Assembly (NCBI GenBank): GCA_965230925.1
Contig: OZ246403.1
Span: 138,455 to 202,454, forward strand
Length of the DNA: 64,000 nucleotides
Reading direction: 5' to 3'
Source of the DNA: an uncultured Candidatus Saccharibacteria bacterium
GTDB taxonomy: Bacteria > Patescibacteriota > Minisyncoccia > Phycocordibacterales > JACOZG01
The position numbers were made by a program, and so were the translations under genes. Under the pieces are notes generated by a model. It saw only the letters and a program-made list of their open reading frames with translations, made no database searches and had not been told where the DNA came from. Below are positions 2,224 through 18,656 of the stretch, in pieces; the first letter of the stretch is position 1, and the number at the start of each line of letters is the position of its first letter.

Positions 2224-4140
2224 TTAGAGAATAGTCTCGGGCTCGACATTAATAATAAATCGAGGCGGTAATGCCTTCAGACTAGCAAGTAATTCTTCCT
2301 CTGGCCACCGCTTGGGCTCGAGTTTAAGGAGCAGGTGCATGATGTATTCTCCCTTCACTTCCGAGGTAAAAGCGGGGAATGTTTCTGGTTCATAATCATT
2401 GAGTGAGGTCGCGAGGTGTTGGATCTCAGGAAGAATCTCGAGTCGTTTACCTTCCCGAGTAATTTTTAATAACAACTTAAACGGCGGATAACCAAAGCGC
2501 TCGCGATCAGTAATTTCTTTACGATAAAACTCAAGCAAGTTTCCGGTCATCGCTTGCTCAAAGAATGGCCAATCACCGTGCTTGGTCTGAACGAGAAATT
2601 GCTTGGTCGCCAGTTCCCGCGCGCGCAAGAGTAAGTTAAAAGCCTTCTCGCCAATGCGAAAATCGGGAATTGTAAACAATCCATCAAGCGACACCACCGC
2701 CACGTTCTCTACTTTATCTTTCAAGTAATGTAGCGCGAGCTCGGTCCCAAGAAGACAAGCTCCCGGCGTAGCAAAAAAACGTGAAATAATTTCTTTGGCT
2801 TTCTTGCCTGTCGGCGCCAAATCACTATCGAGCCGGAAAATTTCGAGGTCGGGGACCAGCTTCTTTAGTGCGAGCTCAACACCCTCGATAGCAATGCCGA
2901 GTTGCTCGAGCCGCCAGCCGCCGCAGTTGCGACAGCGTTCTTCTACCGCTCTTGTCTCACGACATTTATGGCAAACGAGGCGGTAATCGGCGGCCGCCCC
3001 ACCACCATCGGTGCGGAAGCGATGTAAGACCATTGGATTTGCGCAACGCCGACAGCGAATACTCTCGCCGCAATCACGACAAATAATGAGCGGCGATGTC
3101 CCTCGACGATTAACGAGAAAGAAGCTACGTTCGCCGCGGCGCATGGCTTGAGCCAAGAGCCACTCGAGACGCGCAGTGACAGGACGGAATTCCTCACCAG
3201 TTTCGCGCTCGAAGGGAATAATTTCTTGCCGCGCCGGAGAAAAGGCGCGGTGCTTCAACGGTGAGGCAGACATAATCTCGCCGCGCTCCACGCGGTGATT
3301 AGTTTCTGACCGCAACAAGGTGTCACCAAAATAAATTTTACAACCGAGCGCTGAAGCAAAAAATTCTCCAAACCGTCGATAATCAAGAAAGGGTCGCGAG
3401 AGTTGCTTATAACTTCCTGAACTCTCACGATCAAACACAATTGAACCGAGATCTGCCCGCGGGAGAGAAAGGAAGGCGGGTGTGGCTAAAACAAGCACCG
3501 GATGCGACTGGCTCACGGCGTCACGCCAATTTTCCCACAACACCTTCGAACCCAGTTTACTGTGGAGGATAAACATATATTCGCGAATCCCTTTCTCGAG
3601 AAGTGTCGCGGCGTGCTCGATCTCGGCCACCGTCGGAAGAATGAGAAAAACGGAAGCATTACGCGCAAACTCCGAGCGAATGAGGCTCTTGTAGAAAGCG
3701 AGTCGCTCAACTTCTGGTTCTTGAAGGGCAAAAAGTTCGGGATGCTTACGCGGCAAACGCTTAACTTCCTTTTTCACCGTGGGCAACTTTTCCTTCCCGC
3801 TCAAGTAACGATCAAGAACGGGCTGGCTAACCACGCTCTTTAACACCTGGCCCAAACTGGAAGCAAAATGATCCGACGCTCTCCGGGCGGCGTCAAGAAA
3901 GCTGGGCAACAGGAAATTACTAACCGACGCCGTGGGCAACTTCTTGAGCTGGAAACTGGCTCCCCGAAGGCTCGTTTTCTGCGCCGCGGCATCAGTAACC
4001 GCTGTAATAATCGCCGGCACCTTCTTGCCACGAACATTAACCTCGAGCAAAGAGCCGAGCATAGGGGGCTCTTTGGCAAAGTAAGACAGCCGATCTCTAA
4101 AAACACCGCGGGCAATGGGTAATACTTCCACTACTTTCAT
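2224..4140 (-). CDS. priA: primosomal protein N' (PriA helicase)
   Basis: Helicase domains plus Cys4 zinc-binding cluster CRDCG..CRRCANPMVLH. The ORF extends to 4221, but the PriA-typical N-terminus MKVVEVLPIA begins at 4140, so I take 4140 as the start. Confidence 0.85.
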   Translation of the reverse strand: MKVVEVLPIARGVFRDRLSYFAKEPPMLGSLLEVNVRGKKVPAIITAVTDAAAQKTSLRGASFQLKKLPTASVSNFLLPSFLDAARRASDHFASSLGQVLKSVVSQPVLDRYLSGKEKLPTVKKEVKRLPRKHPELFALQEPEVERLAFYKSLIRSEFARNASVFLILPTVAEIEHAATLLEKGIREYMFILHSKLGSKVLWENWRDAVSQSHPVLVLATPAFLSLPRADLGSIVFDRESSGSYKQLSRPFLDYRRFGEFFASALGCKIYFGDTLLRSETNHRVERGEIMSASPLKHRAFSPARQEIIPFERETGEEFRPVTARLEWLLAQAMRRGERSFFLVNRRGTSPLIICRDCGESIRCRRCANPMVLHRFRTDGGGAAADYRLVCHKCRETRAVEERCRNCGGWRLEQLGIAIEGVELALKKLVPDLEIFRLDSDLAPTGKKAKEIISRFFATPGACLLGTELALHYLKDKVENVAVVSLDGLFTIPDFRIGEKAFNLLLRARELATKQFLVQTKHGDWPFFEQAMTGNLLEFYRKEITDRERFGYPPFKLLLKITREGKRLEILPEIQHLATSLNDYEPETFPAFTSEVKGEYIMHLLLKLEPKRWPEEELLASLKALPPRFIINVEPETIL

Positions 4141-4176
4141 TGCTTTAGAAGATAACACGATGATAAAATAAACTGA

Positions 4177-4998
4177 ATGCCGAGCGAGAAGTACATCGGC
4201 GCTTTGGAAGTGGCGGGGCATGATGAAAAAAAGCTCGCCGCTCTTGAGTCTTTGTGCCGCGAAGGGAAGGTGAAAGCCAAACTCGTGGGTAATTCTTGGT
4301 ACGTGACTGAATCAGTGCGAGATAATCTCAAGGCGCATCTCTCAGAATTTAAGCCAAAAACAAACTATCTCCACCACGCCGAACCAGCTGGTCGAGCGGT
4401 GGCGGCGCTTGCGGTAGTCATTGCCCTTGGTATTGGCCTTGCGGCTGAAGGACAAGTTAGTTCTACAATCGCTACGCGCCTCAAAGAAAATGAGGTGGGT
4501 ACTCCAGCACTCACGGCAAGCCTTGCTCCCGTGTTCCGAGATGTTACCGAGGCGCTCGCGGCACTCTTTGAAGATATTTCTCGGATGAAAAATTATGTTA
4601 GTGATCAGTGGTTCTATTATGGTTCACGGATCAAGCTAGCTTGGGGAGGCTTCTTAACGGAAGAAGAAACGCAAAAAATAGAGCAGGTGGCTAACACCGT
4701 CAACACTGGCACCACAATTGATCGCGAACAATTGCGCGCGGAAATTCGAGAAGAATTAAGTGCGGCCCTGCGCGCGAGTGGCGTCCCAGCGGAAGTTACC
4801 CAGCAAGGCCTAATCGTCGTGCCTTCTACCGGCGATCCGGCCACCGACCGCCTGAGCATCTCGGAAATTAACGCTCTTTTCTCCGACGAGGTAAGCGTGC
4901 GCTTCGACGAAAGTGGTCGAGCGGGAGTCATTACACCCAAGTTTAAGACCGGGGAATCAAACGACTACCTCTTTCTCCTAACGCCGGTGAATCACTAA
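4177..4998 (+). CDS. hypothetical membrane protein (one TM helix near residue 80)
   Basis: Long ORF, divergent from priA; TM segment AVAALAVVIALGIGLAA; no recognisable domain. Confidence 0.5.
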   Translation: MPSEKYIGALEVAGHDEKKLAALESLCREGKVKAKLVGNSWYVTESVRDNLKAHLSEFKPKTNYLHHAEPAGRAVAALAVVIALGIGLAAEGQVSSTIATRLKENEVGTPALTASLAPVFRDVTEALAALFEDISRMKNYVSDQWFYYGSRIKLAWGGFLTEEETQKIEQVANTVNTGTTIDREQLRAEIREELSAALRASGVPAEVTQQGLIVVPSTGDPATDRLSISEINALFSDEVSVRFDESGRAGVITPKFKTGESNDYLFLLTPVNH

Positions 4999-5745
4999 AT
5001 GATCAGCCTCACGCCCGCTAAACTTGAATTCTCGGTGTCGCCCGGCCAAAGCGTAACTAAGCTGATTACGCTTAAAAACGAGAGCGCGGAGAACCTAGTG
5101 GGGGAAGTGTTGATCGAGAACTTCGGCCCCGAGCAATATGCGCTCAATCGCTTTCTCACACCTGGCGTACGCACCTTTGCGCTTGGGGCGGGAGAAACAC
5201 GCAGCCTACCCATCACCGTCAGCTTGCCTGCCAATCAAGGTCCGGGCGGCCTCTACACCTCGGTGGTCACCAGCTTTCGCCTCGCGAGCGAGACTGTAGC
5301 CAAAGCAGAAAGTCGCTTAGCCAGCCTCGTCTTTGTAAAAGTCCCTGGCCAAGCAAAAGAAGAGGGGCAACTAACCAACTTTCAAAAACAAGAAAACTCT
5401 CTGTATCTAACTTTCAAAAACACCGGCAATGTTTATCTCAATCCATATGGCGGTGTCAAAATCAAAAATTCAATTTCTGGCGCCGAACAAATTATTTCTG
5501 TCGATCCTTGGTTCGTGCTTCCTGGGGATACTCGGATTCGCGAAATCGAAATTAAAAACTCGCTAGGCCTTGGTCGCTGGCAAGCCACCGCAGAACTAAA
5601 CAGGGGTTATGGCGACCTCATCGACACCCGCGCCATCGCCTTCTGGATCTTACCGCCAATTTGGACGATGGTGGTTGTTGGACTTGTGATTTTGGCTGTC
5701 TTGTTTGGCCTTGGTTGGAAATTCTGGCGACGTGGTAAAATTTAA
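4999..5745 (+). CDS. hypothetical beta-rich protein with C-terminal TM anchor
   Basis: Starts immediately after the TAA of the preceding ORF in the same frame; Ig-like or chaperone-like beta-strand pattern; C-terminal TM plus basic tail WKFWRRGKI. Confidence 0.5.
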   Translation: MISLTPAKLEFSVSPGQSVTKLITLKNESAENLVGEVLIENFGPEQYALNRFLTPGVRTFALGAGETRSLPITVSLPANQGPGGLYTSVVTSFRLASETVAKAESRLASLVFVKVPGQAKEEGQLTNFQKQENSLYLTFKNTGNVYLNPYGGVKIKNSISGAEQIISVDPWFVLPGDTRIREIEIKNSLGLGRWQATAELNRGYGDLIDTRAIAFWILPPIWTMVVVGLVILAVLFGLGWKFWRRGKI

Positions 5746-5748
5746 AAT

Positions 5749-6489
5749 ATGAAATGGGGCTGGGGATTAATTATTTTGACCTGCTTACTCGGCGCACAAG
5801 GGGCGGCGGCGTATGTAGCCTCGAGCAATAATTATAGAATCCAAACCGACAGCGTTAATGTGGGCGGCGGACTTTCAACTTCGACTAATTACGCTATGGA
5901 AAGCACGGCGGGGGAAATTGCGAGTGGGGAATCAAGTAGTACTAATTACAAAATCAAGGCTGGTTATCAGCAAATGCTCGTGAGTTCAATCTCAATCTCA
6001 GCGCCAAGCGATGTGAGCTTGGGTTCTATTGATGGCACCACGGGCGGCAGTGCGCTTGGCTCAACCGCTTGGACCGTGATTACCGACAACGCTGCTGGTT
6101 ACATTTTAGCCGTCCGCTCAAGCACTAATCCGGCTCTCACTTCTGGTGGAAACAGCGTTAGCAATTACACACCCGCTGGCGCCACACCTGATTACACTTG
6201 GTCGGTGGCTGCGAGTGCCAGCGAATTCGGCTTTAGTCCTGAAGGCACGCACGTGGTCCAGCGTTATCTCGACAATGGATCAAGCTGTAATGCTGGCGCA
6301 AGCAACAACACCAACACTTGCTGGGATCCATTTTCCACCTCCAACACCACCGTAGCCTCAAGCGCAAGCGCCAACTCTCCCAGCGGCACGGCCACCACCC
6401 TTAAGCTCCAAGCCGAACTCGGCGCTGACCTCGAGCCCACCGACGGCGCCTACTCAGCCACCATTATTGCCACCGCCACCGCGCAATGA
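5749..6489 (+). CDS. secreted Ser/Thr/Asn-rich protein
   Basis: Signal peptide MKWGWGLIILTCLLGAQGAAA; repeated xTNY motifs; low-complexity S/T/A-rich C-terminus. Confidence 0.5.
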   Translation: MKWGWGLIILTCLLGAQGAAAYVASSNNYRIQTDSVNVGGGLSTSTNYAMESTAGEIASGESSSTNYKIKAGYQQMLVSSISISAPSDVSLGSIDGTTGGSALGSTAWTVITDNAAGYILAVRSSTNPALTSGGNSVSNYTPAGATPDYTWSVAASASEFGFSPEGTHVVQRYLDNGSSCNAGASNNTNTCWDPFSTSNTTVASSASANSPSGTATTLKLQAELGADLEPTDGAYSATIIATATAQ

Positions 6490-8516
6490 TTAAACTCGCC
6501 TCGCTCAAAATTATCGCCGCCGCCATTCTTCTTTTAATCGTCGGCGGCATCGGGCTCAGAACCTTCGCCGCTAACGATAGTGTAAATGTGAGCCTCGAAA
6601 TTGCTTGTCCGGGAGACGACTGCGCCCCCTCAGGAGGTGGTGGCGGGCCGCCCCCACCTCCTCCGCCGCCTCCGCCACCGAGCCCGATATTGGGCTGCAC
6701 CGACTCCGATGCCACCAATTACAACGCTTCAGCCACCCAAGATGATGGTTCTTGCGTGTACCCCAGCGACGCCGTTCCAAATGTCTCTGACTTCGACGGT
6801 GAATACGACGAGGATAATGAAGAAATTGATTTAAGCTGGACCAACCCCGATTTCCCCGAATTTGCCAGTGTTCGTATTATGCGAAGCACCAGCTTTTTCC
6901 CCACTAACCCAAGCAGTGGCGACCTTGTATACACCGGTAGCGGCGAAAGTGCCGTCGACAATGATGTAGAACCGGGCACCACCTACTATTACGCCATCTT
7001 TGTTCGCAATACCAATGGCGATTATTCATCAGGCGCAGTTACGAGCGTGAATGTGCCCGAGCCAGAAGAAGAGCCACCGGAAGAAGAACCAGAGGACGAA
7101 GAACCGCCGGTTGATGAGGACGGAAACGGTATTCCTGACGATGAGGAACCGCCGGACCCCTTCGCCGATCTACCACAAGCGCCAATTGTTGACCCTCTTG
7201 TGGAAGTTCTAAACTTTGGCGACTTTATCTTCGTTCAACCAGGCGAGGGGAGGCAATTCTTCGGTAGTGGCAGTGTGCTCCGGATTAATGGCAAAAAAGA
7301 TCTGACTGTTCTCCTGGAGGCAAACAAGGTACCGGGGAATCTAAAAACCATCGCTATAACTCTGCGCGACCCAAGCGATTGGAAAAAAACTTTTTCTTTT
7401 CTCCTTAAATTAAATGAAACGGGAACAGCCTACACCGCCACCATTGCTCCGCTTGGGAGATCGGGTAATTATCCGGTTTATATTTCTATCGTCGACTTCC
7501 AAAATCAAAGTATAAAAAGAATTGAGGGGCGCCTTCTCGTGGCCGCGGCCGGAGCCGCACCAATAGCGAATATCGCAGGAAGAATCGCTTCACCTTTTGT
7601 TGTCGCATCCGGTCTTATCCTTGGTGTGGCCGAAGGATTTTCGCTTGTTGCGCATATCAAATCATTTTCTGATCTCTATTGGCTTCTCCTTCACGGCTTC
7701 AACCTCATCACCCGCTTCTTCGGCTTCCGGAAAAAGGTTAAACCTTGGGGCGTGGTCTACGACTCAGTAACCAAGCGACCGCTTGACCCAGCTTACGTGA
7801 TCGTGAAGCAATCCGACAGCGACGTAAACACAGCCATCACCGACCTCGACGGCCGCTACGGCTTTTTACTCCAATCCGGAACCTACTCTCTGATGGCAAA
7901 CAAAACCCACTATCAATTTCCCTCGGTAAAGCTCGCAGGAAGAACGAGCGATGAGCTCTACGATAATCTCTACCATGGCGGCGACTTCCAAACCCTCACT
8001 GGTGAAGTGATTAATCGCAATATTCCGCTCGACCCAATTGCCTTCGACTGGAATGAATTTGCAAAAGATAAGCAGGGCTTCTTCATTCTCCACACCAAGA
8101 AGGAGAAGCGACGCGCGCGCCTTCTCAACGGCGTTTTCATTATCGGCTTTGCCCTCTCGGCCTACAACCTCGTGTTCAACCCGAGCTGGTTAAACATTCT
8201 CGCGATCGCCTTCTATCTCGCGACGCCACTCGGCCGTCTCTGGTGGCGCCACCGCCGACCCGTCGTACAAGTGAAAAGTCTCACAAGTGGCTTGCCTTCG
8301 CCGTACGCTATCGTGAAAGCGTTTATTCCGAAAGTTAATCAACAAGTGCGTCAGGTGGTGGCGGATCAATTGGGTCGCTTCTTCCTTCTCACCCCGCCAG
8401 GGGAATATTATCTCACCGTAGAAGAAAAACAGGATGATGGCACCTACAAAAAAGTTCTGGAGACTCCTCCGCTACTTCTCTCTCGCGGTGTGCTAGATAA
8501 AAACTTAGTTTTCTAG
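6486..8516 (+). CDS. large multidomain envelope protein (signal anchor, G5-P12 linker, FN3-like domain, acidic PE-rich linker, TM segments, CarboxypepD_reg-like modules)
   Basis: ATGA overlap with the upstream gene; poly-Pro encoded by mixed codons; FN3-like consensus DLSWTNP...TYYYAIFVRNTNGDYSS; CarbopepD-reg-like VYDSVTKRPLDPAYVIVKQ..DLDGRYGF. Confidence 0.6.
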   Translation: MIKLASLKIIAAAILLLIVGGIGLRTFAANDSVNVSLEIACPGDDCAPSGGGGGPPPPPPPPPPPSPILGCTDSDATNYNASATQDDGSCVYPSDAVPNVSDFDGEYDEDNEEIDLSWTNPDFPEFASVRIMRSTSFFPTNPSSGDLVYTGSGESAVDNDVEPGTTYYYAIFVRNTNGDYSSGAVTSVNVPEPEEEPPEEEPEDEEPPVDEDGNGIPDDEEPPDPFADLPQAPIVDPLVEVLNFGDFIFVQPGEGRQFFGSGSVLRINGKKDLTVLLEANKVPGNLKTIAITLRDPSDWKKTFSFLLKLNETGTAYTATIAPLGRSGNYPVYISIVDFQNQSIKRIEGRLLVAAAGAAPIANIAGRIASPFVVASGLILGVAEGFSLVAHIKSFSDLYWLLLHGFNLITRFFGFRKKVKPWGVVYDSVTKRPLDPAYVIVKQSDSDVNTAITDLDGRYGFLLQSGTYSLMANKTHYQFPSVKLAGRTSDELYDNLYHGGDFQTLTGEVINRNIPLDPIAFDWNEFAKDKQGFFILHTKKEKRRARLLNGVFIIGFALSAYNLVFNPSWLNILAIAFYLATPLGRLWWRHRRPVVQVKSLTSGLPSPYAIVKAFIPKVNQQVRQVVADQLGRFFLLTPPGEYYLTVEEKQDDGTYKKVLETPPLLLSRGVLDKNLVF

Positions 8517-8635
8517 TAAACTTTTTCTCGGAAAGTGTTCCAACATCTCCAACCCTCCTTTCACACATCACTTCTTGCCCAACCAAGATCTTACCGGGCA
8601 GATTGACGATCGGGAGGAACACACCCCAACCAGAT

Positions 8636-8686
8636 GGATCCCAACTTGCCGCGCCCGTTTTTGCAAGTTGGGATCCTTTTATTTTG
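8636..8686 (+). terminator. strong rho-independent terminator (14-bp stem ggatcccaacttgc/gcaagttgggatcc + T-run)
   Basis: Perfect inverted repeat followed by TTTTATTTT. Confidence 0.75.
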
Positions 8687-8773
8687 CTCAACCAACCTTG
8701 ACTTTTTTTAATAAAGTGATAGTTATTTAAATAGTTTCGTTTACGTTTTAGAGGACCTGTTAGGAGGTGAACC

Positions 8774-9319
8774 TTGAAATACTTGGCAGTCATAAGTTCC
8801 GTTATCGCCACATTGGCGATTTTGGCCTTCGGGGTACAAATCTGGAAAACCAACACCCCGCAAAATGTTGCTAGCTGGTTAATGTGGCTAATTCTCAACA
8901 CGATATTATTGTTCGCCTCGATTTCCGCAGGCAATAAGAAGTCATGGATGTTGAGTCTGGGCTACGTAATTGGAGGAGCAGCAGGAACAGCCGCGTTGCT
9001 TTTCCGAGGTCAATGGCATTGGGGAAAAACAGAAACAGTTTGTGCTGTTGGCGCAGCAGTTAGCATGATGGTGTGGAAAAAACTAGGTCCCAAAAAGGGC
9101 TTGGTCGTTAGTGCGATTGCAATCACCATGGCAGGAATACCCGCTCTGAGCGAAGCGTGGCAAACCCACAATCGTGAAAGCTGGTGGCTTTGGACAATCA
9201 TTGCTTTCTGCTGCCTCCTCACCACCATCGGCGCAGAGCGGTGGACTCTGCAAGATCGCTTGTTCCCTATTGTCAGTATGATTTTCAATGGCACGATGGC
9301 CGTCCTTGTTCTTTTGTAA
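8774..9319 (+). CDS. polytopic membrane protein, paralog 1 (possible PQ-loop/PnuC-like fold)
   Basis: TTG start with strong SD AGGAGGT; about 6 predicted TM helices; TPQ motif; homologous to the downstream ORF. Confidence 0.55.
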   Translation: MKYLAVISSVIATLAILAFGVQIWKTNTPQNVASWLMWLILNTILLFASISAGNKKSWMLSLGYVIGGAAGTAALLFRGQWHWGKTETVCAVGAAVSMMVWKKLGPKKGLVVSAIAITMAGIPALSEAWQTHNRESWWLWTIIAFCCLLTTIGAERWTLQDRLFPIVSMIFNGTMAVLVLL

Positions 9320-9324
9320 AACAA

Positions 9325-9372
9325 CCTGTTCTCGTACGCAGAAAAACCTGCTGAGGACAGGTTTTTCTTTTT
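9325..9372 (+). terminator. rho-independent terminator
   Basis: cctgttctc...gaggacagg hairpin + TTTTTCTTTTT. Confidence 0.65.
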
Positions 9373-9511
9373 AGTTATTGACTATTTGAAAGCCTTGACT
9401 TATTCCTTATAGAATGCTAGTCTGTTGGCAGTAAAAGATCGTTGATTTAAGCCAAAAGTGCGGGCTTTTCTAATACGCACTTAAACCATAAAGAGGAAGG
9501 AGGGCTGACAA

Positions 9512-10093
9512 TTGTCAGTAAAAGATATTCTTTCGGCAGCTGCCGGATTACTGTTCCTTGCAGGTTATGTTCCATATATCATTAGTATCTTTCGGGGTAA
9601 CAAGCCGGCAAAGGCCTCCTGGTTAATCTGGGTTAGCCTCGACACCATTAGTTTGGTCGCCATGTATTACGAGAAAACGGTAAACGGCCAAATTCTTGGT
9701 ACAGTAGCAGGAGCCTGGGTAGTTACGGCCCTCGCGATGAAGTACGGCAAACCGGGGTGGAGCAACCTTGATAAGTTCTGCTTGGTTGGGGCAGTCGTGG
9801 GAATCGCTTTGTGGCAATACTTCGATAGTCCAGTCTTGGGTTTGGTTACCAGTCAGGCGGTCACTTTTTTGGGGTCAGTTCCAACATTCGTTTCAGCTTG
9901 GAAAGATCCCTCGCAAGAAGACCGTTTTGCCTGGACTCTCTACTGGCTATCTTGTGTTGCTGCAATGTTTGCAATTCCCTCACCGACAATTGCCCACGTT
10001 ACTCAACCTACAACCTTCTTTATCATCGAGAGTGTCATGATGTACTTACTCTTTGTCAGAAAAAGAGTGAGAATCATTCCTGTTACCGATTAA
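9512..10093 (+). CDS. polytopic membrane protein, paralog 2
   Basis: TTG start with strong SD AGGAAGGAGGG; alignable to paralog 1 (ASWL.W..L.T, SAW..WT motifs). Confidence 0.55.
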   Translation: MSVKDILSAAAGLLFLAGYVPYIISIFRGNKPAKASWLIWVSLDTISLVAMYYEKTVNGQILGTVAGAWVVTALAMKYGKPGWSNLDKFCLVGAVVGIALWQYFDSPVLGLVTSQAVTFLGSVPTFVSAWKDPSQEDRFAWTLYWLSCVAAMFAIPSPTIAHVTQPTTFFIIESVMMYLLFVRKRVRIIPVTD

Positions 10094-10120
10094 GATCGCC
10101 CTCTAAAAATCGATCTGTGA

Positions 10121-10163
10121 GCCCGCTGTCAGTTCCAATGGAACGCGGCGGGCTTTTTCTTTT
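10121..10163 (+). terminator. rho-independent terminator
   Basis: gcccgc...gcgggc hairpin + TTTTTCTTTT. Confidence 0.65.
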
Positions 10164-10247
10164 CTTGGTTTTTATGATAAAAAGATTAGCTGTTGGATAG
10201 AACCTTCCCAAACCATTTTTTCTATAACACGAAAGGAGTCGACGTAA

Positions 10248-10438
10248 TGACAGACTATGACGGTTCCGACACCAGACGTCCCTACGAATGGCCATACATT
10301 GATGACGCAAGGCGAAACAGAAACGGAAGGGTTGAACTCGGGGCGCGACAACGAAAGACGAAAAGCTTTCTTGCCAGCCTTGTCGTGATCGGCGCAGTCG
10401 TTATCGTGTTTTGGAAAATATTTTGGCCTTCGGACTAA
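10248..10438 (+). CDS. small tail-anchored membrane protein (63 aa)
   Basis: ATG with SD AAAGGAG 9 nt upstream; C-terminal TM LASLVVIGAVVIVFW; the listed ORF begins earlier at 10193. Confidence 0.35.
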
Positions 10439-10465
10439 AGGAGGAAAATGGGTTGATAGTTAAGG

Positions 10466-10500
10466 CCTGCCTCGGGGCGGGCTTTATCTTTGTCTTTTTC
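10466..10500 (+). terminator. rho-independent terminator carrying the 22-nt tail CGGGCTTTATCTTTGTCTTTTT
   Basis: Hairpin cctgcc-tcgg-ggcggg + T-rich tail; the tail is identical to the one at 11686-11707. Confidence 0.6.
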
Positions 10501-10611
10501 AGTATGGAACTTGACGAAATCTATTTAATAAGCTAGTTTAATAACCAGTTCGGGCCTTGGCCTGAAAGAGTATGTCCTTTGTTGTTTTGTTGCTATTAGG
10601 GAGAAAAAGCA

Positions 10612-11619
10612 ATGGCAAAGAAAAGGAAGGCCTCCAAGCGTATGGGGGTCAAGGAAACGGGGGCGAGATCGCCCAGGAAAAGATCACCACAAAAGAGAAT
10701 GAGCACGGAAACAGATTCGGTAATTCCGGTCACCGTAGTGAAAACTCCTTCAACACCCCAAGTTGACGTGAAAGAAATGGCAAGGGAAACCGGAATTCCA
10801 CTCGACGCCATTAAGTTGGCGCTCGGTTTGCCGACTGACATCTCATTTTCTGATCAGATGTACTTTGGGGACCTCAAACACCTCGGTCCTCTGTGTCGAG
10901 GTCGGGTCCTCATCCAAACGAATCACTTCGCGGCAGAAGCCATCGACCCCGACAAGCTCGAGCGGGTCGTCCTTCCTCTTACACACCAACTGCACAAGCT
11001 AGCCTGTGCCGAATTGGAAAAGGCCAACACCGTTGGATGCAGCAGGGAACGTTGGCGAGAAATCGCCGACGCTCTCGAACCAGGGTCATCGACCTGGTTC
11101 AAAGCTCAAGCGAGAGTAGAAGACATGGGCTTCGAAGAAATTGTCAACGAAACCAATCTTCGCAATTTGATTACAACTCTGAATGGGGGCAAGATCCCCA
11201 TCGGCAGTGGGTTATGGAGCAGGGCAGTTGATGTCTTCCGGGGCTTACTCGAAACAGACTTGCGACGAGCTGGCACGAATGAAAACGTCGAATGGCTACT
11301 CGCACAACGCCAGGGGTTGGAACACCTTGTGTCATTGGATTTCTTTTACAATTGCATGGAGGAATGGTTCCGTGTCACCGACGATGCGGCTGCCCTCGCT
11401 GAAAAACTAGCGGGCAGCGACATCAACCAAAGAAGTCTCGCCTGGAAGGTGGGATCGCAAAAACTCAGTGGAATACTCAGTGATGAGATGAAAACGAACG
11501 ACGAGATTCCACTCGAACGACTCGTCGCAATCTATCAGATGGCTCCTGCAGGAAGCGAAGTCAAGCAGGAAGCGATCCTGAGAATGTCCGAACTCTTCCA
11601 AACATCGGCAGCGGCGTAA
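10612..11619 (+). CDS. hypothetical protein with Lys/Arg-rich N-terminus
   Basis: SD AGGGAG 8 nt upstream of the ATG; TTGACG -35-like box upstream; all-helical body without recognisable motifs. Confidence 0.5.
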   Translation: MAKKRKASKRMGVKETGARSPRKRSPQKRMSTETDSVIPVTVVKTPSTPQVDVKEMARETGIPLDAIKLALGLPTDISFSDQMYFGDLKHLGPLCRGRVLIQTNHFAAEAIDPDKLERVVLPLTHQLHKLACAELEKANTVGCSRERWREIADALEPGSSTWFKAQARVEDMGFEEIVNETNLRNLITTLNGGKIPIGSGLWSRAVDVFRGLLETDLRRAGTNENVEWLLAQRQGLEHLVSLDFFYNCMEEWFRVTDDAAALAEKLAGSDINQRSLAWKVGSQKLSGILSDEMKTNDEIPLERLVAIYQMAPAGSEVKQEAILRMSELFQTSAAA

Positions 11620-11657
11620 ACTGTCGGGAAGTTCCAATAGCACCAACCTTTAGCGAA

Positions 11658-11707
11658 GCCCGTCGTTTGTTCACCAGAACAGCGACGGGCTTTATCTTTG
11701 TCTTTTT
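11658..11707 (+). terminator. rho-independent terminator, second copy of the 22-nt tail
   Basis: 8-bp stem gcccgtcg/cgacgggc + the same tail CGGGCTTTATCTTTGTCTTTTT. Confidence 0.65.
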
Positions 11708-11735
11708 GGGTAAAAGAGACTAGAATATCGAAACT

Positions 11736-13049
11736 ATGGCAAGTAGTGGAAAATTTGTAATAAAGGGCTCAGCAAATAGCCGGAATTTGACGGGTGAGGT
11801 GAAGGTGAGCGGGGCGAAAAATGACGCCTTGCCGGCCTTTGCTTCGGCCTTATTGTTCAAAGACGAATTGAACTTGAGTAATGTGCCGGCGATTTCTGAC
11901 ATCGACGCGATGGCCAAACTCTTGAGTGGTCTGGGTGCCACAGTGGAAAGTGAGGGTGGAGAAAGTGGAAGGCCTGCCTTGCCGGCAGGCAGGTGGAAAG
12001 TAGTGTTGGGAAAAAAAATTAGTTCTACCCTCGATCCCGAGATTGCCAAGCGCTTCCGTGGTTCTATTACACTTCTTGGCCCAGTGCTCGCCCGGACACA
12101 TGAAGTAGTTTTTCCACACCCGGGCGGCTGCGTCATTGGCGAGCGGCCAATTGATATTTTCCTCAAAGGCTTCGAGGCGCTTGGCGCCACCGTAACGGAG
12201 CACGATAATCGCTATCACCTCAAGGCACCGGAAGGTCTACATGGTGCAGAGTTTTTCTTTAAATATCAAAGTGTCACCGCCACAGAAACCTTGATGATGG
12301 CCGCGGTTCTCGCGAAGGGAAAAACCGTTTTGAAAAACGCTGCCATGGAACCTGAGGTCATCGCCCTCGGCGAATTCTTGATCCAAGCGGGAGCAAAAAT
12401 TACAGGACTCGGCAGTAATACGATTGAAATTGTGGGTGGCGAATTATTGTCGGGTCAAAACCTTGTTCGCGAAATTATTCCCGATCGCATTGAGGCGGGA
12501 AGCTTCGTGATTCTCGGTGCCCTAGCGGGTAAAAACGTCGCAGTTAAAAATTTAAACGCTAATCATCTCCAATCTCTCACCAACACGCTGACCGAAATGG
12601 GCGTGCAGTTAGAAATTAAACCTGACCAAATTACTATTTTGGGCCGAGCAGAAAAATTGAAGCCGGTGAATCTCCGCACTCATGAATATCCGGGTTTTCC
12701 CACCGATCTCCAGGCACCAATGGCCGTGCTCCTCACTCAAGCGAGTGGCCGAAGCACCATCTTTGAAACTATTTTTGAAGGTCGACTCGGCTATTTAGAA
12801 ACGCTCAAAATGATGGGTGCGCAAGCCTGGATTCATGACCCTCATCAAGCTACGGTTGAAGGACCAACCCCGCTAAGTGGTCAAGAAGTGGTGAGTCCTG
12901 ACCTCCGCGCTGGTCTGGCCTATATTCTCGCGGGTATTGTCGCCAACGGTCAAACGATTGTACACAATGTGCATTACGTGGAGCGGGGATACGAAAAAAT
13001 TGAAGAAAAACTCGCTGGTCTTGGCGTTCAGATTGTTAAAGAAGGGTAA
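11736..13049 (+). CDS. murA: UDP-N-acetylglucosamine 1-carboxyvinyltransferase
   Basis: MurA motifs VSGAKNDALP and C-terminal EPT fold; 437 aa. Confidence 0.9.
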   Translation: MASSGKFVIKGSANSRNLTGEVKVSGAKNDALPAFASALLFKDELNLSNVPAISDIDAMAKLLSGLGATVESEGGESGRPALPAGRWKVVLGKKISSTLDPEIAKRFRGSITLLGPVLARTHEVVFPHPGGCVIGERPIDIFLKGFEALGATVTEHDNRYHLKAPEGLHGAEFFFKYQSVTATETLMMAAVLAKGKTVLKNAAMEPEVIALGEFLIQAGAKITGLGSNTIEIVGGELLSGQNLVREIIPDRIEAGSFVILGALAGKNVAVKNLNANHLQSLTNTLTEMGVQLEIKPDQITILGRAEKLKPVNLRTHEYPGFPTDLQAPMAVLLTQASGRSTIFETIFEGRLGYLETLKMMGAQAWIHDPHQATVEGPTPLSGQEVVSPDLRAGLAYILAGIVANGQTIVHNVHYVERGYEKIEEKLAGLGVQIVKEG

Positions 13050-14063
13050 ATGTCGATTTTCACCAGACAATTGGGCATTGACCTCGGGACAGCGAACACC
13101 TTGGTCTTCATGCCGGGCAAGGGAATTGTGCTCAATGAGCCGTCAGTCGTTGCCATTTCTCTCTTCGATAATAAAATTGTGGCGGTAGGCCTGGAAGCGA
13201 AGGACATGGTAGGCAAAACGCCTGACACGATTAAAGCCTATCGGCCGATGAGAGATGGAGTGATTGCCGATTATCGTGTGACGGAAGCCATGTTGCGCTA
13301 TTACATTAACAAGGCGCTCGGAAAATTTAATATTTGGAAGCCAGAAGTAATGATCTCCGTCCCAGCTGGCGTCACAAGCACCGAGCGGCGCGCGGTGGTG
13401 GAGGCGGCGATTAAGGCGGGAGCGAAAAACGCCTTCGTGGTGAAGGAACCAATTCTTGCGGCCATTGGCGCCGGTGTCCCAATTCAAGAAGCGCGAGGAC
13501 ACATGATTGTAGATATTGGCGGCGGAACCACGGATGTGGCCGTAATTTCTCTCGGCGGTATTGTGGCCGCAACTTCCGTGAAGCATGCGGGCAATAAGCT
13601 CGACCAAGCGATTGTGGACTATATTAAAAAGACTTTTAACCTCGCGATTGGCGACAAAACCGCGGAAGAAGTGAAAATAAAAATTGGCTCAGCCGTGCCG
13701 ATTGAAGATGAGCTCGTGCACACGATTAAAGGCCGCGACTTAATGACAGGCTTACCGCGCTTTGCCGAAGTGAAGACGAATGAAATTACAAAAGCAATTG
13801 AGCCAGAACTAAAAGAAATTATTAAAGCGATTCGCACCGTCTTCCAAGAAACGCCGCCCGAGCTCGCGGCAGATATTATTGACCACAGCATTATCATGAG
13901 TGGCGGTTCATCACTCTTGCGCAATCTTCCTGAACTCGTGTATCGCCGCACGGGGGTGAAGGCCACGGTGGCCGACGACGCTCTCTTTTGCGTAGTAAAG
14001 GGAACCGGCGTGGCTCTTGATCACCTCGGGACGTATAAAAAGAGTGTGCTCGCCAAGCGCTAA
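13050..14063 (+). CDS. mreB: rod-shape determining actin homolog MreB (copy 1)
   Basis: GIDLGTANTLVF phosphate-1 motif; MreB/Hsp70 actin-like fold throughout. Confidence 0.9.
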   Translation: MSIFTRQLGIDLGTANTLVFMPGKGIVLNEPSVVAISLFDNKIVAVGLEAKDMVGKTPDTIKAYRPMRDGVIADYRVTEAMLRYYINKALGKFNIWKPEVMISVPAGVTSTERRAVVEAAIKAGAKNAFVVKEPILAAIGAGVPIQEARGHMIVDIGGGTTDVAVISLGGIVAATSVKHAGNKLDQAIVDYIKKTFNLAIGDKTAEEVKIKIGSAVPIEDELVHTIKGRDLMTGLPRFAEVKTNEITKAIEPELKEIIKAIRTVFQETPPELAADIIDHSIIMSGGSSLLRNLPELVYRRTGVKATVADDALFCVVKGTGVALDHLGTYKKSVLAKR

Positions 14064-14681
14064 ATGAAACTCGAACATCATGCGTATTTGATAATTGGGG
14101 AAGCGGGGGAATTGATTGCTGATTTAAAAAATTCGCATCCGAGCGCGCGGCATCATAAATTTGAGAGGCTGGGCATTGACGATAGCCGCGCACTTGCCGC
14201 TGATCAAAGTCAAACGGCCTGGAGTGGCGAAATTAAGCTCTTTATTCTCGAAATTGTTGATGCTACAGTTGAGGCCCAAAACGCTCTTTTGAAAATGTTG
14301 GAGGAGCCAACAGCTGGAACTCACTTTATTCTCATCGTACCCTCGGCCGAGATTTTACTCTCAACAGTACGCTCACGATTACAAAAGATATCACCACCCC
14401 CTGCCTACCGGCAGGCAGGCCAACCCTCTTCCCAAAGGGGAGGGGAACACGCTCAAGAATTCCTGAAAATGATTCCCGCCAAGCGGCTTGAGTGGCTTAA
14501 GAACACTGAATTACCAAGTAATTTCCTCGACCAACTTGAGCAAGTGATAGCAGAAAAAAAAGACTTAACCGCTTACGCCGAACTCGCCTTGGTACGAAAA
14601 AAGTGGCACATACCAGGAGCGAGTCATAAATTACTTTTAGAACATTTGGCTGTTACTTTACCGGTTTTTGTATTAAGATAG
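14064..14681 (+). CDS. holB: DNA polymerase III delta-prime-like clamp-loader subunit (short)
   Basis: HAYLIIG with degenerate P-loop; LLKMLEEP..THFILI..STVRSR box typical of delta-prime. Confidence 0.65.
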   Translation: MKLEHHAYLIIGEAGELIADLKNSHPSARHHKFERLGIDDSRALAADQSQTAWSGEIKLFILEIVDATVEAQNALLKMLEEPTAGTHFILIVPSAEILLSTVRSRLQKISPPPAYRQAGQPSSQRGGEHAQEFLKMIPAKRLEWLKNTELPSNFLDQLEQVIAEKKDLTAYAELALVRKKWHIPGASHKLLLEHLAVTLPVFVLR

Positions 14682-14686
14682 CGGAT

Positions 14687-15241
14687 ATGGCATACGATTT
14701 TGGTAGTTTTAAGAGCAAAGTGAAAGAGGTCGAGACCTGGTTTAGTAAAGAACTTTCCTCGGTGCGGACGGGTCGGGCCACGCCCGCGATTCTTGATGGA
14801 ATTACGGTCAAGGCTTATGGCGGCGAGCGCACACCCGTGTCTCATCTCGCGAGCATTGCGGTCGAAGATGCGCGGACTTTGCGCGTGACCCCGTGGGACA
14901 AGGCTCAGATTAAAGAAATTGACGCCGCCATTGCCACCGCCAATTTGGGGGTCTCGGTCGCGGCTGACGGCACTGGCCTGCGGGTAATTTTTCCTTCGCT
15001 CACAGAAGAAAACCGCGGCACGCTGGCGAAGGTCGTGAGCAAAAAACTTGAAGAAGCTAGAATTAGTTTGCGCCGTGAGCGTGAAGAAGTGTGGAATGAT
15101 ATTCAGGCGAAGGAAAAGGAAGGGAAGTTAAGTGAGGACGAGAAATTTAAAGGTAAAACAGAACTTCAGAAACTGGTTGATGAGGGAAATGCAATGCTAG
15201 ATAAAATTGCGACCAGTAAAGAAACCGAGATTCGCGGCTAA
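14687..15241 (+). CDS. frr: ribosome recycling factor
   Basis: Full-length RRF similarity (VRTGRA...PWDK). Confidence 0.9.
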   Translation: MAYDFGSFKSKVKEVETWFSKELSSVRTGRATPAILDGITVKAYGGERTPVSHLASIAVEDARTLRVTPWDKAQIKEIDAAIATANLGVSVAADGTGLRVIFPSLTEENRGTLAKVVSKKLEEARISLRREREEVWNDIQAKEKEGKLSEDEKFKGKTELQKLVDEGNAMLDKIATSKETEIRG

Positions 15242-15247
15242 ATTATT

Positions 15248-16369
15248 ATGAATATTATTATCTTTCTAATCATTTTGGGTTTACTCGTCTTTACCCATGA
15301 ATTGGGACACTTTTTGGCCGCCAAGAAGTCGGGGATTCGCGTGGATGAATTTGGCCTCGGCTTCCCACCGCGCGTGTGGGGAGTAAAGCGCGGCGAAACT
15401 ATTTATTCGATCAACTGGCTACCGTTTGGCGGCTTCGTAAAAATCTTTGGCGAAAATCCGGATGAAGAATCAACTTCGGGCCCCGATTCGGGCCGAAGCA
15501 TGATTCATAAGCCAAAACATATTCAAGCAATGGTCTTGGTCGCTGGAGTTTTCTTCAACTTCCTTTTTGCTTGGATCTTGATCGCGCTAGGGTTCGCCAC
15601 GGTTGGCATTCCTACAGCAGAAAGTAATTTTGGTAATAATTATCCCCTCGAGAATGCCGCACTGGTGGTGACTGGCGTTCTCCCTGGTTCACCCGCCGAG
15701 ATGGCCGGCTTAGAAGTCGGTGATAAAGTTTTAAAAGTTAGCAATACTGACGGCACAAAGGTTCTCACCGAACCGAGCGCCGAAGAAACGCGACAATTCA
15801 TTGCGGGTTCAAACGGCAAGATAATAATGAGCTTGATCCGCCAACCTGAGCAAAGCACACAGGAAATCACGGTTGAACCCATCACCGGCCTCATTGCTGG
15901 CGAGCCAAACAAGTTCGCTGTTGGCATTGGCCTCGATCGGGCCGGGATTCTTAAATTACCTTTACACCTAGCTATCTGGGAAGGCGGGAGGGCGACAATT
16001 AACCTCACGGTGGCCACGGTGCTCGGCTTCGGCCAACTTATTTCTGAACTCATTAAAGGCGAGGGTAATTTACTCGCGCAAGTGACCGGGCCAGTCGGAC
16101 TCGTAGGTCTCGTAGGTGATGCCAGTCGGCTCGGGATTGCTTACTTACTCTCATTCACTGCGCTTATTTCCATTAACCTTGCCGTGCTCAATCTCGTCCC
16201 ATTCCCGGCGCTTGATGGCGGCCGCTTACTCTTCCTCTTGATTGAGAAAATTAAAGGCTCACCCATCACGCCCAAGATCGCCAATGCCGTTAATCTTGCC
16301 GGTTTTGCCCTCCTTCTCCTTCTCATGCTCGCCGTGACCTATAAAGATATTGTTCGACTCGTTTCTTAA
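15248..16369 (+). CDS. rseP: RIP zinc metalloprotease RseP (site-2 protease) with PDZ domain
   Basis: HELGH zinc motif in first TM region, PDZ domain, LDGG motif. Confidence 0.85.
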   Translation: MNIIIFLIILGLLVFTHELGHFLAAKKSGIRVDEFGLGFPPRVWGVKRGETIYSINWLPFGGFVKIFGENPDEESTSGPDSGRSMIHKPKHIQAMVLVAGVFFNFLFAWILIALGFATVGIPTAESNFGNNYPLENAALVVTGVLPGSPAEMAGLEVGDKVLKVSNTDGTKVLTEPSAEETRQFIAGSNGKIIMSLIRQPEQSTQEITVEPITGLIAGEPNKFAVGIGLDRAGILKLPLHLAIWEGGRATINLTVATVLGFGQLISELIKGEGNLLAQVTGPVGLVGLVGDASRLGIAYLLSFTALISINLAVLNLVPFPALDGGRLLFLLIEKIKGSPITPKIANAVNLAGFALLLLLMLAVTYKDIVRLVS

Positions 16370-16402
16370 TTGTTTGCTATTGTAAAGCTTTTTCAGTAAG
16401 AT

Positions 16403-17638
16403 TTGGGGGTAATGCGACAAACGCAGCTTTTTAGTAAAACGAGGAAAGAGGGGCCGAAGGATGAGGTGGCGAAGAATGCGTCGCTTCTGGTTCGGGCTGG
16501 TTTCGTCGACAAAGAAATGGCGGGTGTTTACTCTTACTTGCCGCTTGGTTTGCAAGTGTTAAAAAATATTGAAAACTTGATTCGGGAGGAAATGAACGCG
16601 CTCGGTGCTCAGGAAGTGTTGTTGCCATCGCTTCAACCAAAGGAAAATTGGCAAAAAACCGGTCGTTGGGACTCGATGGACGATCTCTATAAAATCCGCG
16701 ATTCGAGCGATCGCGAATTGGCGCTTGGTCCGACACATGAAGAAGTTGTCACGCCGCTAGTGGGACAATTCTTGAGCTCTTATCACGATTTACCATTCTC
16801 GGTTTACCAATTCCAGAATAAATTCCGGATGGAAAAGCGCGCTAAATCTGGCCTCCTGCGCGGGCGCGAGTTCTTGATGAAGGATCTTTACTCTTTCCAC
16901 CGTACGGAAGGTGATTTGAATGAATTTTACGAGCGTGCGATTACCGCGTATCAAAATATTTTTAAGGCTGTTGGTCTGGGTGAAAAAACGTATTTAACTC
17001 TCGCTTCTGGCGGTGCTTTCTCGAGCGAATTCTCACATGAATTCCAAACGGTCACTGATTCTGGTGAGGACACTATCCATCTGTGCGAATCATGCAAGGT
17101 CGCAATTAATGATGAAATTTTTGAGAATCAAAAAACTTGTCCGAAATGTGGTAGCGATAAATTAGAAACTAAAAAATCGATTGAGGTTGGTAATATTTTC
17201 AAACTGGGAACGAAGTATACCAGCGCCTTCGGCGTGAGTTACAAGGACGAATCGGGTACGAACCAAACGCCGATTATGGGCTGTTATGGCCTTGGCTTGG
17301 GCCGCCTCATGGGCACGGTGGCGGAAGTCTTAAGCGATGAAAAGGGCTTAGTGTGGCCGCAAAACATCTCACCGTTTGATCTACATGTTATCGAGTTGCC
17401 AGGCGGTGACGCAAAAATTGTTCAAGACTTAGAGGCTAAAGGTGTAACCATTCTTCATGACGATCGTGACAAGCGGGCGGGGGAAAAGTTTACCGAGAGC
17501 GAACTCCTTGGTCTCTCGTGGCGACTGGTAATAAGCGAAAAAAGTCGCGAAGGTAATTGGGAACTTAAGAATCGCCGCACGGGCGAAGTAATGACCGCAA
17601 AAAATGTGGAAGAAATTTTACGAATTATTCAGAAATGA
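16403..17638 (+). CDS. proS: prolyl-tRNA synthetase, short form lacking the INS editing domain
   Basis: Bacterial ProRS N-terminus (LLVRAGF..YSYLPLG), class II motifs, C-terminal anticodon-binding domain; 411 aa. Confidence 0.85.
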   Translation: MGVMRQTQLFSKTRKEGPKDEVAKNASLLVRAGFVDKEMAGVYSYLPLGLQVLKNIENLIREEMNALGAQEVLLPSLQPKENWQKTGRWDSMDDLYKIRDSSDRELALGPTHEEVVTPLVGQFLSSYHDLPFSVYQFQNKFRMEKRAKSGLLRGREFLMKDLYSFHRTEGDLNEFYERAITAYQNIFKAVGLGEKTYLTLASGGAFSSEFSHEFQTVTDSGEDTIHLCESCKVAINDEIFENQKTCPKCGSDKLETKKSIEVGNIFKLGTKYTSAFGVSYKDESGTNQTPIMGCYGLGLGRLMGTVAEVLSDEKGLVWPQNISPFDLHVIELPGGDAKIVQDLEAKGVTILHDDRDKRAGEKFTESELLGLSWRLVISEKSREGNWELKNRRTGEVMTAKNVEEILRIIQK

Positions 17639-18656
17639 TATCGGGATTGATCTCGGTACCGCCAACACTCTCGTGTATCTCAAGGGACACGGGATTGTGA
17701 TTAATGAACCGTCAATCGTCGCGCTTAATCAGAAAACGGGCCAACTCGTGGCCATCGGCAATGACGCCAAACAAATGGTGGGCCGCACGCCAAACCACAT
17801 CATGATCGCGCGGCCGCTCACCGACGGCGTGATCTCGAACTTCGAAGTAACGGAAGAAATGTTAGCCTACTTCCTACGCAAGGTGGCCAAGCTCGAGCCG
17901 CGCAAGTTCTTGCGCCCGCGCGTGGTAATTGGCGTCCCGTCTGGAATTACGAACGTGGAAATTCGCGCCGTCCGTGACGCCGCCGTGAGCGCGGGCGCGG
18001 GGGAAGTGCATACCATCGAGGAACCGGTGGCCGCGGCCATTGGTATTCGTTTACCAATCAATGATCCTGTCGGCAGCATGGTCATCGATATCGGCGGTGG
18101 AACTACCGACATTGCCGTCATCTCCCTCGGCGGCATTGTGCAAACGAAAAACCTAAGAATCGCTGGCGATAAACTTAATCAAGATATTATCAATTACATC
18201 CGAGATGAATTTAAAATTTTGCTCGGGGAGAAAACAGCGGAGGATGTGAAAATGGCAATCGGCGCCGTAACCAAACAACCAGAACCCTTGGAGGCCATGA
18301 TCCGCGGCCGCGACCTGGTGACCGGTCTACCAAAAGAAGTGGCGATTACTGATGCCGACATTATGGAAGCCATCGGGCCCTCAGTCGCACTTATCATGGA
18401 GGGGATTAAAGAGGTACTCGAGACCACGCCGCCAGAAGTAGTGTCCGACATTATGCATAAAGGAATTGTTTTTGTGGGTGGCGGATCACTTCTCCAAGGC
18501 CTCATTGATCTCGCGGAAAAGGAACTCAAAATTCCCGTTCATCTCGCGCCTGATCCGCTCACGGCCGTGGTTCGCGGCACTGGTTTAATTTTAGAAGATG
18601 TAGACACATATCGAAACGTTTTACTCGATGACGACAACAGCGTATCAGCGCAATAA
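17604..18656 (+). CDS. mreB: MreB (copy 2), first gene of mreBCD-PBP2 operon
   Basis: MWKKFYELFRNDIGIDLGTANTLVY matches the full-length MreB N-terminus; overlaps the proS 3' end by 35 nt. Confidence 0.85.
   Translation: MWKKFYELFRNDIGIDLGTANTLVYLKGHGIVINEPSIVALNQKTGQLVAIGNDAKQMVGRTPNHIMIARPLTDGVISNFEVTEEMLAYFLRKVAKLEPRKFLRPRVVIGVPSGITNVEIRAVRDAAVSAGAGEVHTIEEPVAAAIGIRLPINDPVGSMVIDIGGGTTDIAVISLGGIVQTKNLRIAGDKLNQDIINYIRDEFKILLGEKTAEDVKMAIGAVTKQPEPLEAMIRGRDLVTGLPKEVAITDADIMEAIGPSVALIMEGIKEVLETTPPEVVSDIMHKGIVFVGGGSLLQGLIDLAEKELKIPVHLAPDPLTAVVRGTGLILEDVDTYRNVLLDDDNSVSAQ

Follow-up and report, generated by a model that had tools for sequence, protein, structure and literature searches.

How do two identical copies of a 22-nucleotide (nt) sequence come to lie on either side of a single gene? 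We analysed this question in a 64-kb stretch of DNA from contig OZ246403.1 (hereafter the window), which comes from a Saccharibacteria (TM7) relative and in which a gene for a protein of 335 amino acids (aa) is enclosed by such a repeat directly upstream of murA. Our best reading is that the 22-mer is a duplicated fragment of a composite junction, in which the T-rich tail of the last upstream terminator coincides with the upstream region and the -35 box of the predicted promoter of the murA-mreB-holB-frr operon. For the event itself we see an even chance that the 335-aa gene was gained by recombination at a variable hotspot and that part of this terminator-tail/promoter junction was duplicated.

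An exact 22-nt direct repeat encloses a single gene

The 22-mer CGGGCTTTATCTTTGTCTTTTT occurs in 2 exact copies on the + strand, at 10478–10499 and 11686–11707, which lie 1208 nt apart. An earlier note on this DNA had described an identical 22-nt tail following two different hairpin stems, and both observations were borne out by exact searching and by folding; the start of the left copy is shifted by one base, to 10478 instead of 10479. No exact direct repeat in the 64 kb is longer, and no other reaches 18 nt, the runner-up having 16 nt; with 2 mismatches allowed, the 22-mer stretches to 27 nt. The search for more copies that the note had proposed was run within the window, which represents about 9% of the ~716-kb genome, and it is for the window that the uniqueness of the 22-mer holds: no third copy was found with up to 3 mismatches, and matches of this kind occurred in 0 of 100 shuffles. 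Additional matches to a 14-nt core of the repeat were present at chance level only. On these counts we rejected the idea that the 22-mer is a common terminator tail in the window.

Exact direct repeats at both ends of a 1208-nt unit resemble the attL and attR sites (left and right attachment sites) of an integrated element. The repeat does not delimit a functional unit: its ends fall inside a terminator stem on one side and inside a promoter spacer on the other, which points to a recombination junction rather than to selection or convergence.

The two copies belong to different terminators

We regarded as an intrinsic terminator a stable GC-rich hairpin with an immediately following T-run, placed 3’ of a stop codon on the coding strand. 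Three such elements, here called T0, T1 and T2, precede murA, each of them 23–40 nt past a stop codon. T1 terminates a gene for a 63-aa protein and extends from 10461 to 10499 (+ strand). Its hairpin at 10461–10486 (core 10465–10482) with the stem GCCUGCC-UCGG-GGCGGGC is followed by a T-rich tail (-20.1 kcal/mol, z -3.4), and it was called by the consensus scan. T2, the terminator of the 335-aa gene (11656–11707, + strand), consists of a 33-nt two-tier core hairpin at 11658–11690, an extended stem at 11656–11694 and the tail (-28 kcal/mol, z -5.5). Each copy of the 22-mer contributes to one of these strong but different hairpins the T-tail and, in front of it, the final 5 bases of the 3’ stem.

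As a control we compared the 3’ arm plus tail pairwise among the 19 strong terminators of the window. The pair T1 and T2 scores 44, against a maximum of 27 for unrelated terminator pairs, so the identity is not a generic resemblance between terminators. Past the 22 nt the identity between T1 and T2 ends abruptly, and a gapped alignment towards the -10 box of murA adds just 5 score points, which is not significant.

The right-hand copy overlaps the predicted murA promoter

The nearest GTDB genome, L001, was assembled from a metagenome and represents an uncultured Candidatus Saccharibacteria bacterium; its MurA is 71% identical to that of the window. For comparison we used L001 together with L007, both from one species found in Hainich groundwater, as well as L005 and L006.

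A promoter scan called a candidate murA promoter at 11698–11726 (+ strand), with the -35 hexamer TTGTCT at 11698–11703, a 17-nt spacer and the -10 hexamer TAGAAT at 11721–11726. Its -35 hexamer sits inside the right-hand copy of the 22-mer. The site has what would be expected of a sigma-70-type promoter: the spacing falls within 16–18 nt, it stands upstream of a gene, and it is conserved at orthologous positions. The pattern TTG-N3-N16–18-TA[GT]AAT occurs 3 times only in the window, each time just upstream of an open reading frame (ORF). The left copy is made up of 5 nt of the stem’s 3’ arm, the T-tail, the same hexamer TTGTCT (10490–10495) and 4 nt of spacer; at 16–18 nt past TTGTCT it has GACGAA or neighbouring hexamers in place of a -10-like box, and the promoter scan calls no site.

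A module of the same build is found directly 5’ of murA in L001, L007, L006 and L005, whose MurA proteins are 68–71% identical to that of the window. It has the form ...TCTTT(T)GTCTTTTTG-NNN-AAAAG-R-G-N-CTAGAAT, followed after 3–9 nt by the start codon. An alignment of 44 nt, from CGACGGGC to TAGAAT, matches the DNA upstream of murA in L001, L006 and L007, and 31 nt match in L005; what aligns is the right-hand copy together with the 20 nt behind it. In this last genome the T-rich and -35 part is retained without any preceding hairpin, which indicates that the conserved element is the predicted promoter and not the terminator. The modules are located at 11698–11738 in the window, 5960–6003 in L001, 1530–1574 in L005 and 232–272 in L006, and none of them has a Shine-Dalgarno sequence. 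Within the spacer we noticed an inverted repeat, TCTTTT-N5-AAAAGA (11701–11717), which is also present in all four relatives. Its arms are conserved and its centre varies across lineages (GGGT, GCCG, GGGG), the pattern expected of a putative binding site for a dimeric regulator.

In the window 9 nt separate the end of the -10 box from the ATG, and no Shine-Dalgarno sequence lies 5’ of murA, whereas the neighbouring genes have strong ones. From this we infer that the mRNA of the murA operon is probably leaderless. A second leaderless case may lie around 43358 (- strand), where TATAAT stands 5 nt before the start of an ORF.

The earlier note had treated the repeat as a plain terminator tail. This description has to be corrected for the right-hand copy, the one that is conserved in the relatives: judged by its sequence, it is the T-rich upstream part and the -35 box of a conserved, predicted murA promoter, and the same DNA would serve in a double role, as the T-tail of a terminator and as the upstream region and -35 box of this promoter. 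Since the right copy forms part of the conserved module, it would be the ancestral one, maintained by selection, and the left copy a truncated duplicate.

The interval upstream of murA is variable among relatives

The murA module marks one end of a variable region (8517–11735, + strand) that starts behind a gene for a 676-aa protein and holds four genes in the window, coding for proteins of 181, 193, 63 and 335 aa. Between the 676-aa gene and the murA module the window has 3.2 kb, whereas the relatives have 0.5–0.6 kb with unrelated content. The flanks are conserved in L001, L005 and L007, as is typical of a strain-variable hotspot with unrelated content between conserved borders.

In L001 the interval of 0.6 kb contains an unrelated 168-aa orphan ORF; the direct comparison with the 335-aa protein revealed no kinship. 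L007 has the same ORF broken by a stop codon. Here 9134–9448 (- strand) of L007 compares with 5396–5902 of L001, and the in-frame stop and several further substitutions in otherwise near-identical strains suggest that the ORF is decaying or is not a functional gene. The 0.5-kb interval of L005, whose MurA is 68% identical to that of the window, contains a frameshifted PemK/MazF-type toxin gene (1096–1477; Pfam E-value 1e-10) with no obvious antitoxin. In L006 the hairpin is directly preceded by the 3’ end of a different membrane-protein gene; the partial protein matches the 193-aa protein of the window weakly (E-value 0.027).

The position of the right border becomes apparent from L001 and L006, whose MurA proteins are 97% identical. 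Their DNA is identical base for base from about 10 nt 5’ of the hairpin onward and nothing is shared to the left of this point, which places the right-hand limit of the variability at the terminator-promoter module itself. The 3’ arm GGCGGG of T1 is identical to the arm found 5’ of murA in L001, L006 and L007, whereas T2 has GACGGG. This fits T1 as the resident terminator.

The enclosed gene encodes an orphan protein

The 335-aa gene (10612–11619, + strand) has the Shine-Dalgarno sequence GGGAG at 10599–10603, 8 nt before its ATG, and an alternative start at M30 (10699). In the earlier note it was credited with a TTGACG box and a strong Shine-Dalgarno sequence of its own. Both are present, and in this respect the note holds; the candidate promoter at 10511–10539 (+ strand), with TTGACG at 10511–10516 and a spacing of 17 nt, has a weak TAGTTT as its only -10 box and was not called by the consensus promoter scan. 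The further suggestion of a self-contained acquired unit agrees with our data, as the repeat is non-random, exactly one gene is bracketed, this gene is lineage-specific and the locus varies among relatives.

Searching 5.8 billion clustered proteins for homologues returned the 335-aa protein itself only, and so did an exhaustive HMMER search of 1.84 billion representatives. No match was obtained in Pfam, PHROGs, PADLOC, NCBIfam, PDB sequences, phage and plasmid records (tblastn) or IMG/VR. A single-sequence AlphaFold2 model is unreliable (predicted local distance difference test, pLDDT, 47); the predictions suggest a basic, probably disordered N-terminus of ~50 aa and an all-helical body behind it. 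The annotated frame scores far above the other five frames. The codon score of 0.11 falls below the minimum of 0.162 among the 36 long ORFs of the window; this and the absence of homologues count in favour of a gain of the gene.

Search for mobile elements and related arrangements

The earlier note had proposed the insertion of a gene cassette or, equally, the duplication of a terminator-containing segment. Of the first proposal the non-random repeat, the single gene and the junction-like ends remain, but the locus has no recombinase, transposase, attC site or terminal inverted repeat that would mark a cassette. Within about 6 kb on either side of the unit there is no Pfam match to an integrase, recombinase or transposase; the neighbours are core genes or uncharacterised. 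A recombinase as in an element with attL and attR ends is not encoded by the unit either, its single ORF having no known domain in Pfam, PHROGs, PADLOC or NCBIfam.

A transposon or insertion sequence with a target-site duplication was rejected, as the only ORF lacks a Pfam or NCBIfam match and terminal inverted repeats are absent: the only inverted repeat near the ends (10505–10517 and 11624–11636; 11 of 13 bases) is at chance level and not terminal. An integron cassette was rejected because no Pfam match to a recombinase or integrase exists at the locus (window 2699–19619) and the hairpins are perfect GC-rich stems with T-runs. For a group IIC intron, neither a reverse-transcriptase domain nor a ribozyme was detected; the Rfam search of 8400–12000 (E-value up to 1) found no known RNA element apart from one chance match to ctRNA.

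Outside the window, neither the GTDB representative genomes nor IMG/VR contain the 22-mer. When metagenome contigs were scanned for the conserved promoter pattern, L007 was the only one recovered. Six public contigs (Logan, NCBI) with an identical MurA or an identical 63-aa protein all show the same arrangement as the window. In SRR12822861 the assembly is broken inside the 335-aa gene, and we rejected this break as a variant, since the two contigs overlap by 20 nt as in an ordinary assembly break.

Origin of the repeat

How the gene reached its place, from which donor and by which route we infer from the arrangement as follows. The 335-aa gene, with its own ribosome-binding site, weak promoter and hairpin, would have been added just upstream of the murA junction. 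On the left, the terminator already resident behind the 63-aa gene would persist with its tail as T1, severed from the -10 box. On the right there would be an intact copy of tail and promoter, T2, which keeps the essential murA operon expressed. The most likely route would start from DNA of a related strain in which the gene stood 5’ of that strain’s own murA module. After uptake, homology within murA would anchor this DNA on the right, and on the left an illegitimate or short-homology join would fall in the T-run, a process called homology-facilitated illegitimate recombination (HFIR). Saccharibacteria are naturally competent (PMC10633639), and for comparable arrays of successive genes beside a conserved anchor HFIR has already been put forward (PMC5361080); competence in the phylum and the T-run at the left junction are the points that support HFIR here. 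Recombination between both 22-mers would precisely delete the gene and rebuild the junction of T1, promoter and murA, which is testable in population data. Such an empty site would read T1 hairpin, ...TTTGTCTTTTT, then GGGTAAAAGAGACTAGAAT.

Several observations weigh against gain by recombination at the hotspot. Neither an empty site nor a donor was found: the contigs that were compared base by base show zero differences from the window, the relatives (MurA about 70% identical) are too distant to tell gain from loss, and no donor or pre-insertion allele occurred in the collections searched. HFIR alone does not predict a left junction at the end of the same 22 nt, for which chance or a short-homology crossover in the tail is needed. 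The 335-aa gene is unremarkable for the genome in GC content (52%) and in GC at third codon positions (0.565), and we rejected compositional foreignness; only the codon score is low. T0 resembles a third, older relative of the module, which could mean repeated local duplication. Finally, both the promoter and the leaderless start are predicted from the sequence only.

T0 leads to the explanation that survives best beside gain by recombination. A segment of 3’ arm, tail and promoter could have been copied in place by slippage or unequal crossing-over, perhaps repeatedly (T0, T1, T2), and the genes in between would have been captured or would have diverged later, so that the repeat is not the scar of the gene’s arrival. 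T0 (10121–10175, + strand) follows the 193-aa membrane-protein gene and has a 33-nt two-tier hairpin at 10121–10153 with the tail TTTTTCTTTTCTTGGTTTTT (-25.3 kcal/mol, z -3.7). Its 3’ arm and tail match T1 at 22 of 24 positions, and in the comparison of arms and tails the three non-trivial terminator pairs with the highest scores are those among T0, T1 and T2. The pairs with T0 score 28–30, against 27 for the best unrelated pair. The alignment of T0 with T2, whose hairpin is likewise 33 nt long and two-tiered, extends over 72 nt including remnants like TAAAAGA..TAG and scores 47 (null mean 19, sd 5.6), and one unrelated pair reaches 46. This pair consists of terminators at unrelated loci, around 40637 (- strand) and around 56390 (+ strand), and families of related terminators may exist in this genome. 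As a third copy of the repeat T0 was rejected, its similarity being barely above this background; it may have arisen as an earlier copy of this module that has since diverged, for which the match is only suggestive. The sequence AGTTCCAAT occurs twice only in the 64 kb, in the loop of T0 (10131–10139) and 20 nt before the T2 hairpin (11630–11638), each time preceded by CTGTC. Together with the matching hairpins this pair may be the trace of an older duplication, which is statistically marginal.

That duplication happens at the locus is also evident from the tandem paralogues for the 181-aa and 193-aa proteins. Against duplication in place, neither the 63-aa nor the 335-aa gene is related to the other or to murA, and the 1.2 kb between the copies needs a second, separate insertion. 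The abrupt stop of identity between T1 and T2 and the marginal excess of the T0 scores speak in the same direction. We consider duplication in place unlikely, though it has to be taken seriously.

We regard as improbable a site-specific or Campbell-type insertion, in which a circle of 1208 bp with the gene and one 22-mer joined an att-like copy in the chromosome, either by a recombinase encoded elsewhere or by RecA acting on the short homology. It would account for perfect direct repeats that bracket exactly one gene with its own expression signals, and for a locus that holds a different single gene in each relative. With 22–27 nt the repeat falls within the lengths known for att cores and for the shortest stretch that homologous recombination can use. 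The missing recombination genes in the surrounding 6 kb and the lack of any other copy of the site in the window, the GTDB representative genomes and IMG/VR are difficult to reconcile with it. In addition, the variable genes of L001 and L006 come without a second copy of the tail and the point of divergence lies 5’ of the hairpin, and the T2 hairpin is a normal GC-rich terminator and not an imperfect, attC-type structure. Insertion of a circle implies a circular or tandem junction made up of the T2 hairpin, the tail ...TTTGTCTTTTT and then CAGTATGGAACTTGACG / CAGTATGG.

A long shot is that the junction of terminator tail and -35 box is a reusable docking site, at which single genes are captured without a recombinase or with one encoded in trans, each gene bringing a fresh copy of the junction. 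If true, T0, T1 and T2 would be successive scars, and the locus would be an integron-like array without an integron and a nursery for orphan genes.

It is very improbable that the tails share no common event and became identical through selection (as a terminator tail or as a binding site for protein or RNA), gene conversion or chance, because the identity of 22 of 22 positions includes non-T positions and 5 stem bases and lies far outside other pairs and shuffles, and because neither the -10 box nor the second arm of the inverted repeat is present in the left copy, which leaves the two copies without a common function, even though both do act as predicted T-tails and tails in the window share a loose T3–6-A-T-C flavour (e.g. 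at 891, 38136, 40637 and 63347).

Comparison with known systems

HFIR has been proposed for effector-immunity arrays in the type VI secretion system clusters of Vibrio cholerae and in Rhs loci (PMC5361080, citing de Vries & Wackernagel 2002 and Prudhomme et al. 2002). As in these arrays, non-homologous genes appear to have been added beside a conserved anchor, older genes being pushed aside yet kept; no dedicated recombinase is present, the locus differs between close strains, and the host phylum is competent (PMC10633639). Our locus is unlike them in that the anchor would be a module of promoter and essential gene (murA) and not the 5’ region of a toxin gene, and in that 22 nt of this anchor are present in duplicate, a feature that HFIR does not call for; the mechanism here would follow from the arrangement. 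With integration hotspots in general the locus shares conserved flanks (the 676-aa gene with three genes upstream of it, and murA-mreB-holB-frr) around unrelated content that includes a decaying toxin and orphan genes. It differs in being tiny, with 0.5–3.2 kb, one to four genes and no mobile-element genes, and in a right boundary that can be placed within about 10 nt of the hairpin.

Integron gene cassettes are promoterless ORFs with an attC site that are captured by IntI at attI. The likeness to them lies in single-gene units in a row, each followed by a hairpin element, with related 3’ elements. Unlike in integrons, no IntI was found at the locus, the hairpins are canonical GC-rich terminators with T-runs and not attC sites, the gene appears to have a promoter of its own, and the repeat belongs to a predicted promoter.

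Bacterial group IIC introns are found just downstream of terminator motifs (PMC1702495). Here, too, the new DNA would start right after a terminator hairpin and its T-run, but ribozyme (Rfam) and reverse-transcriptase ORF are both missing from the locus. To our knowledge, the insertion of a group II intron does not duplicate 22 nt of its target.

Exact direct repeats at both ends of the inserted DNA are finally also known from att sites and from transposon target-site duplications. These differ from our case by their recombinase or transposase and by terminal inverted repeats, none of which accompanies the one non-mobility gene found here. Typical target-site duplications of transposons measure 2–14 bp, and 22 nt is far longer.

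Neighbouring genes

On the + strand the locus reads: a block of four genes that ends in the 676-aa gene, the 181-aa gene, the 193-aa gene, T0, the 63-aa gene, T1, the 335-aa gene, T2 and murA. On the right flank, which is conserved, murA (11736–13049, + strand; Pfam EPSP_synthase, E-value 1e-76) is the first gene of the tightly packed murA-mreB-holB-frr, after which more core genes follow. On the left, the 676-aa gene (6486–8516, + strand) encodes a protein with a long poly-proline run, acidic repeats, a CarboxypepD_reg-like domain and C-terminal transmembrane segments. Together with three uncharacterised genes upstream it is conserved in L001, L005 and L007.

The 63-aa ORF (10247–10438, + strand) has the Shine-Dalgarno sequence AAAGGAG, encodes a C-terminal transmembrane helix and ends at T1. 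It was called as a gene on all public contigs, and its product has no match in Pfam, PHROGs, PADLOC or NCBIfam. The genes for the 181-aa membrane protein (8774–9319, + strand) and the multi-pass 193-aa membrane protein (9512–10093, + strand) are tandem paralogues with 27% identity (E-value 2e-15), and neither product belongs to a Pfam or NCBIfam family. For the 193-aa protein we found 239 homologues with 56–66% identity in many phyla of the Candidate Phyla Radiation (CPR); it is better conserved than MurA (about 55%) and represents an uncharacterised, widespread CPR membrane-protein family. The genomic surroundings of the homologues are unrelated (one homologue lies near a PnuC-like transporter for nicotinamide mononucleotide), which rules out the use of this protein for left-flank synteny.

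Implications

Gain of the 335-aa gene at the murA junction would be a known kind of event, of which the locus offers a clean new example; no new principle is involved and current concepts remain unchanged. One T-rich stretch can be the tail of a terminator and at the same time the -35 and upstream region of a promoter, which would explain both its conservation and the need for an intact copy. If our reading is right, the window gives a nucleotide-level view of lineage-specific gene gain in an ultrasmall, host-dependent bacterium with a genome of about 700 kb and no obvious mobile elements, and the right edge of the hotspot is the promoter of an essential cell-wall operon.

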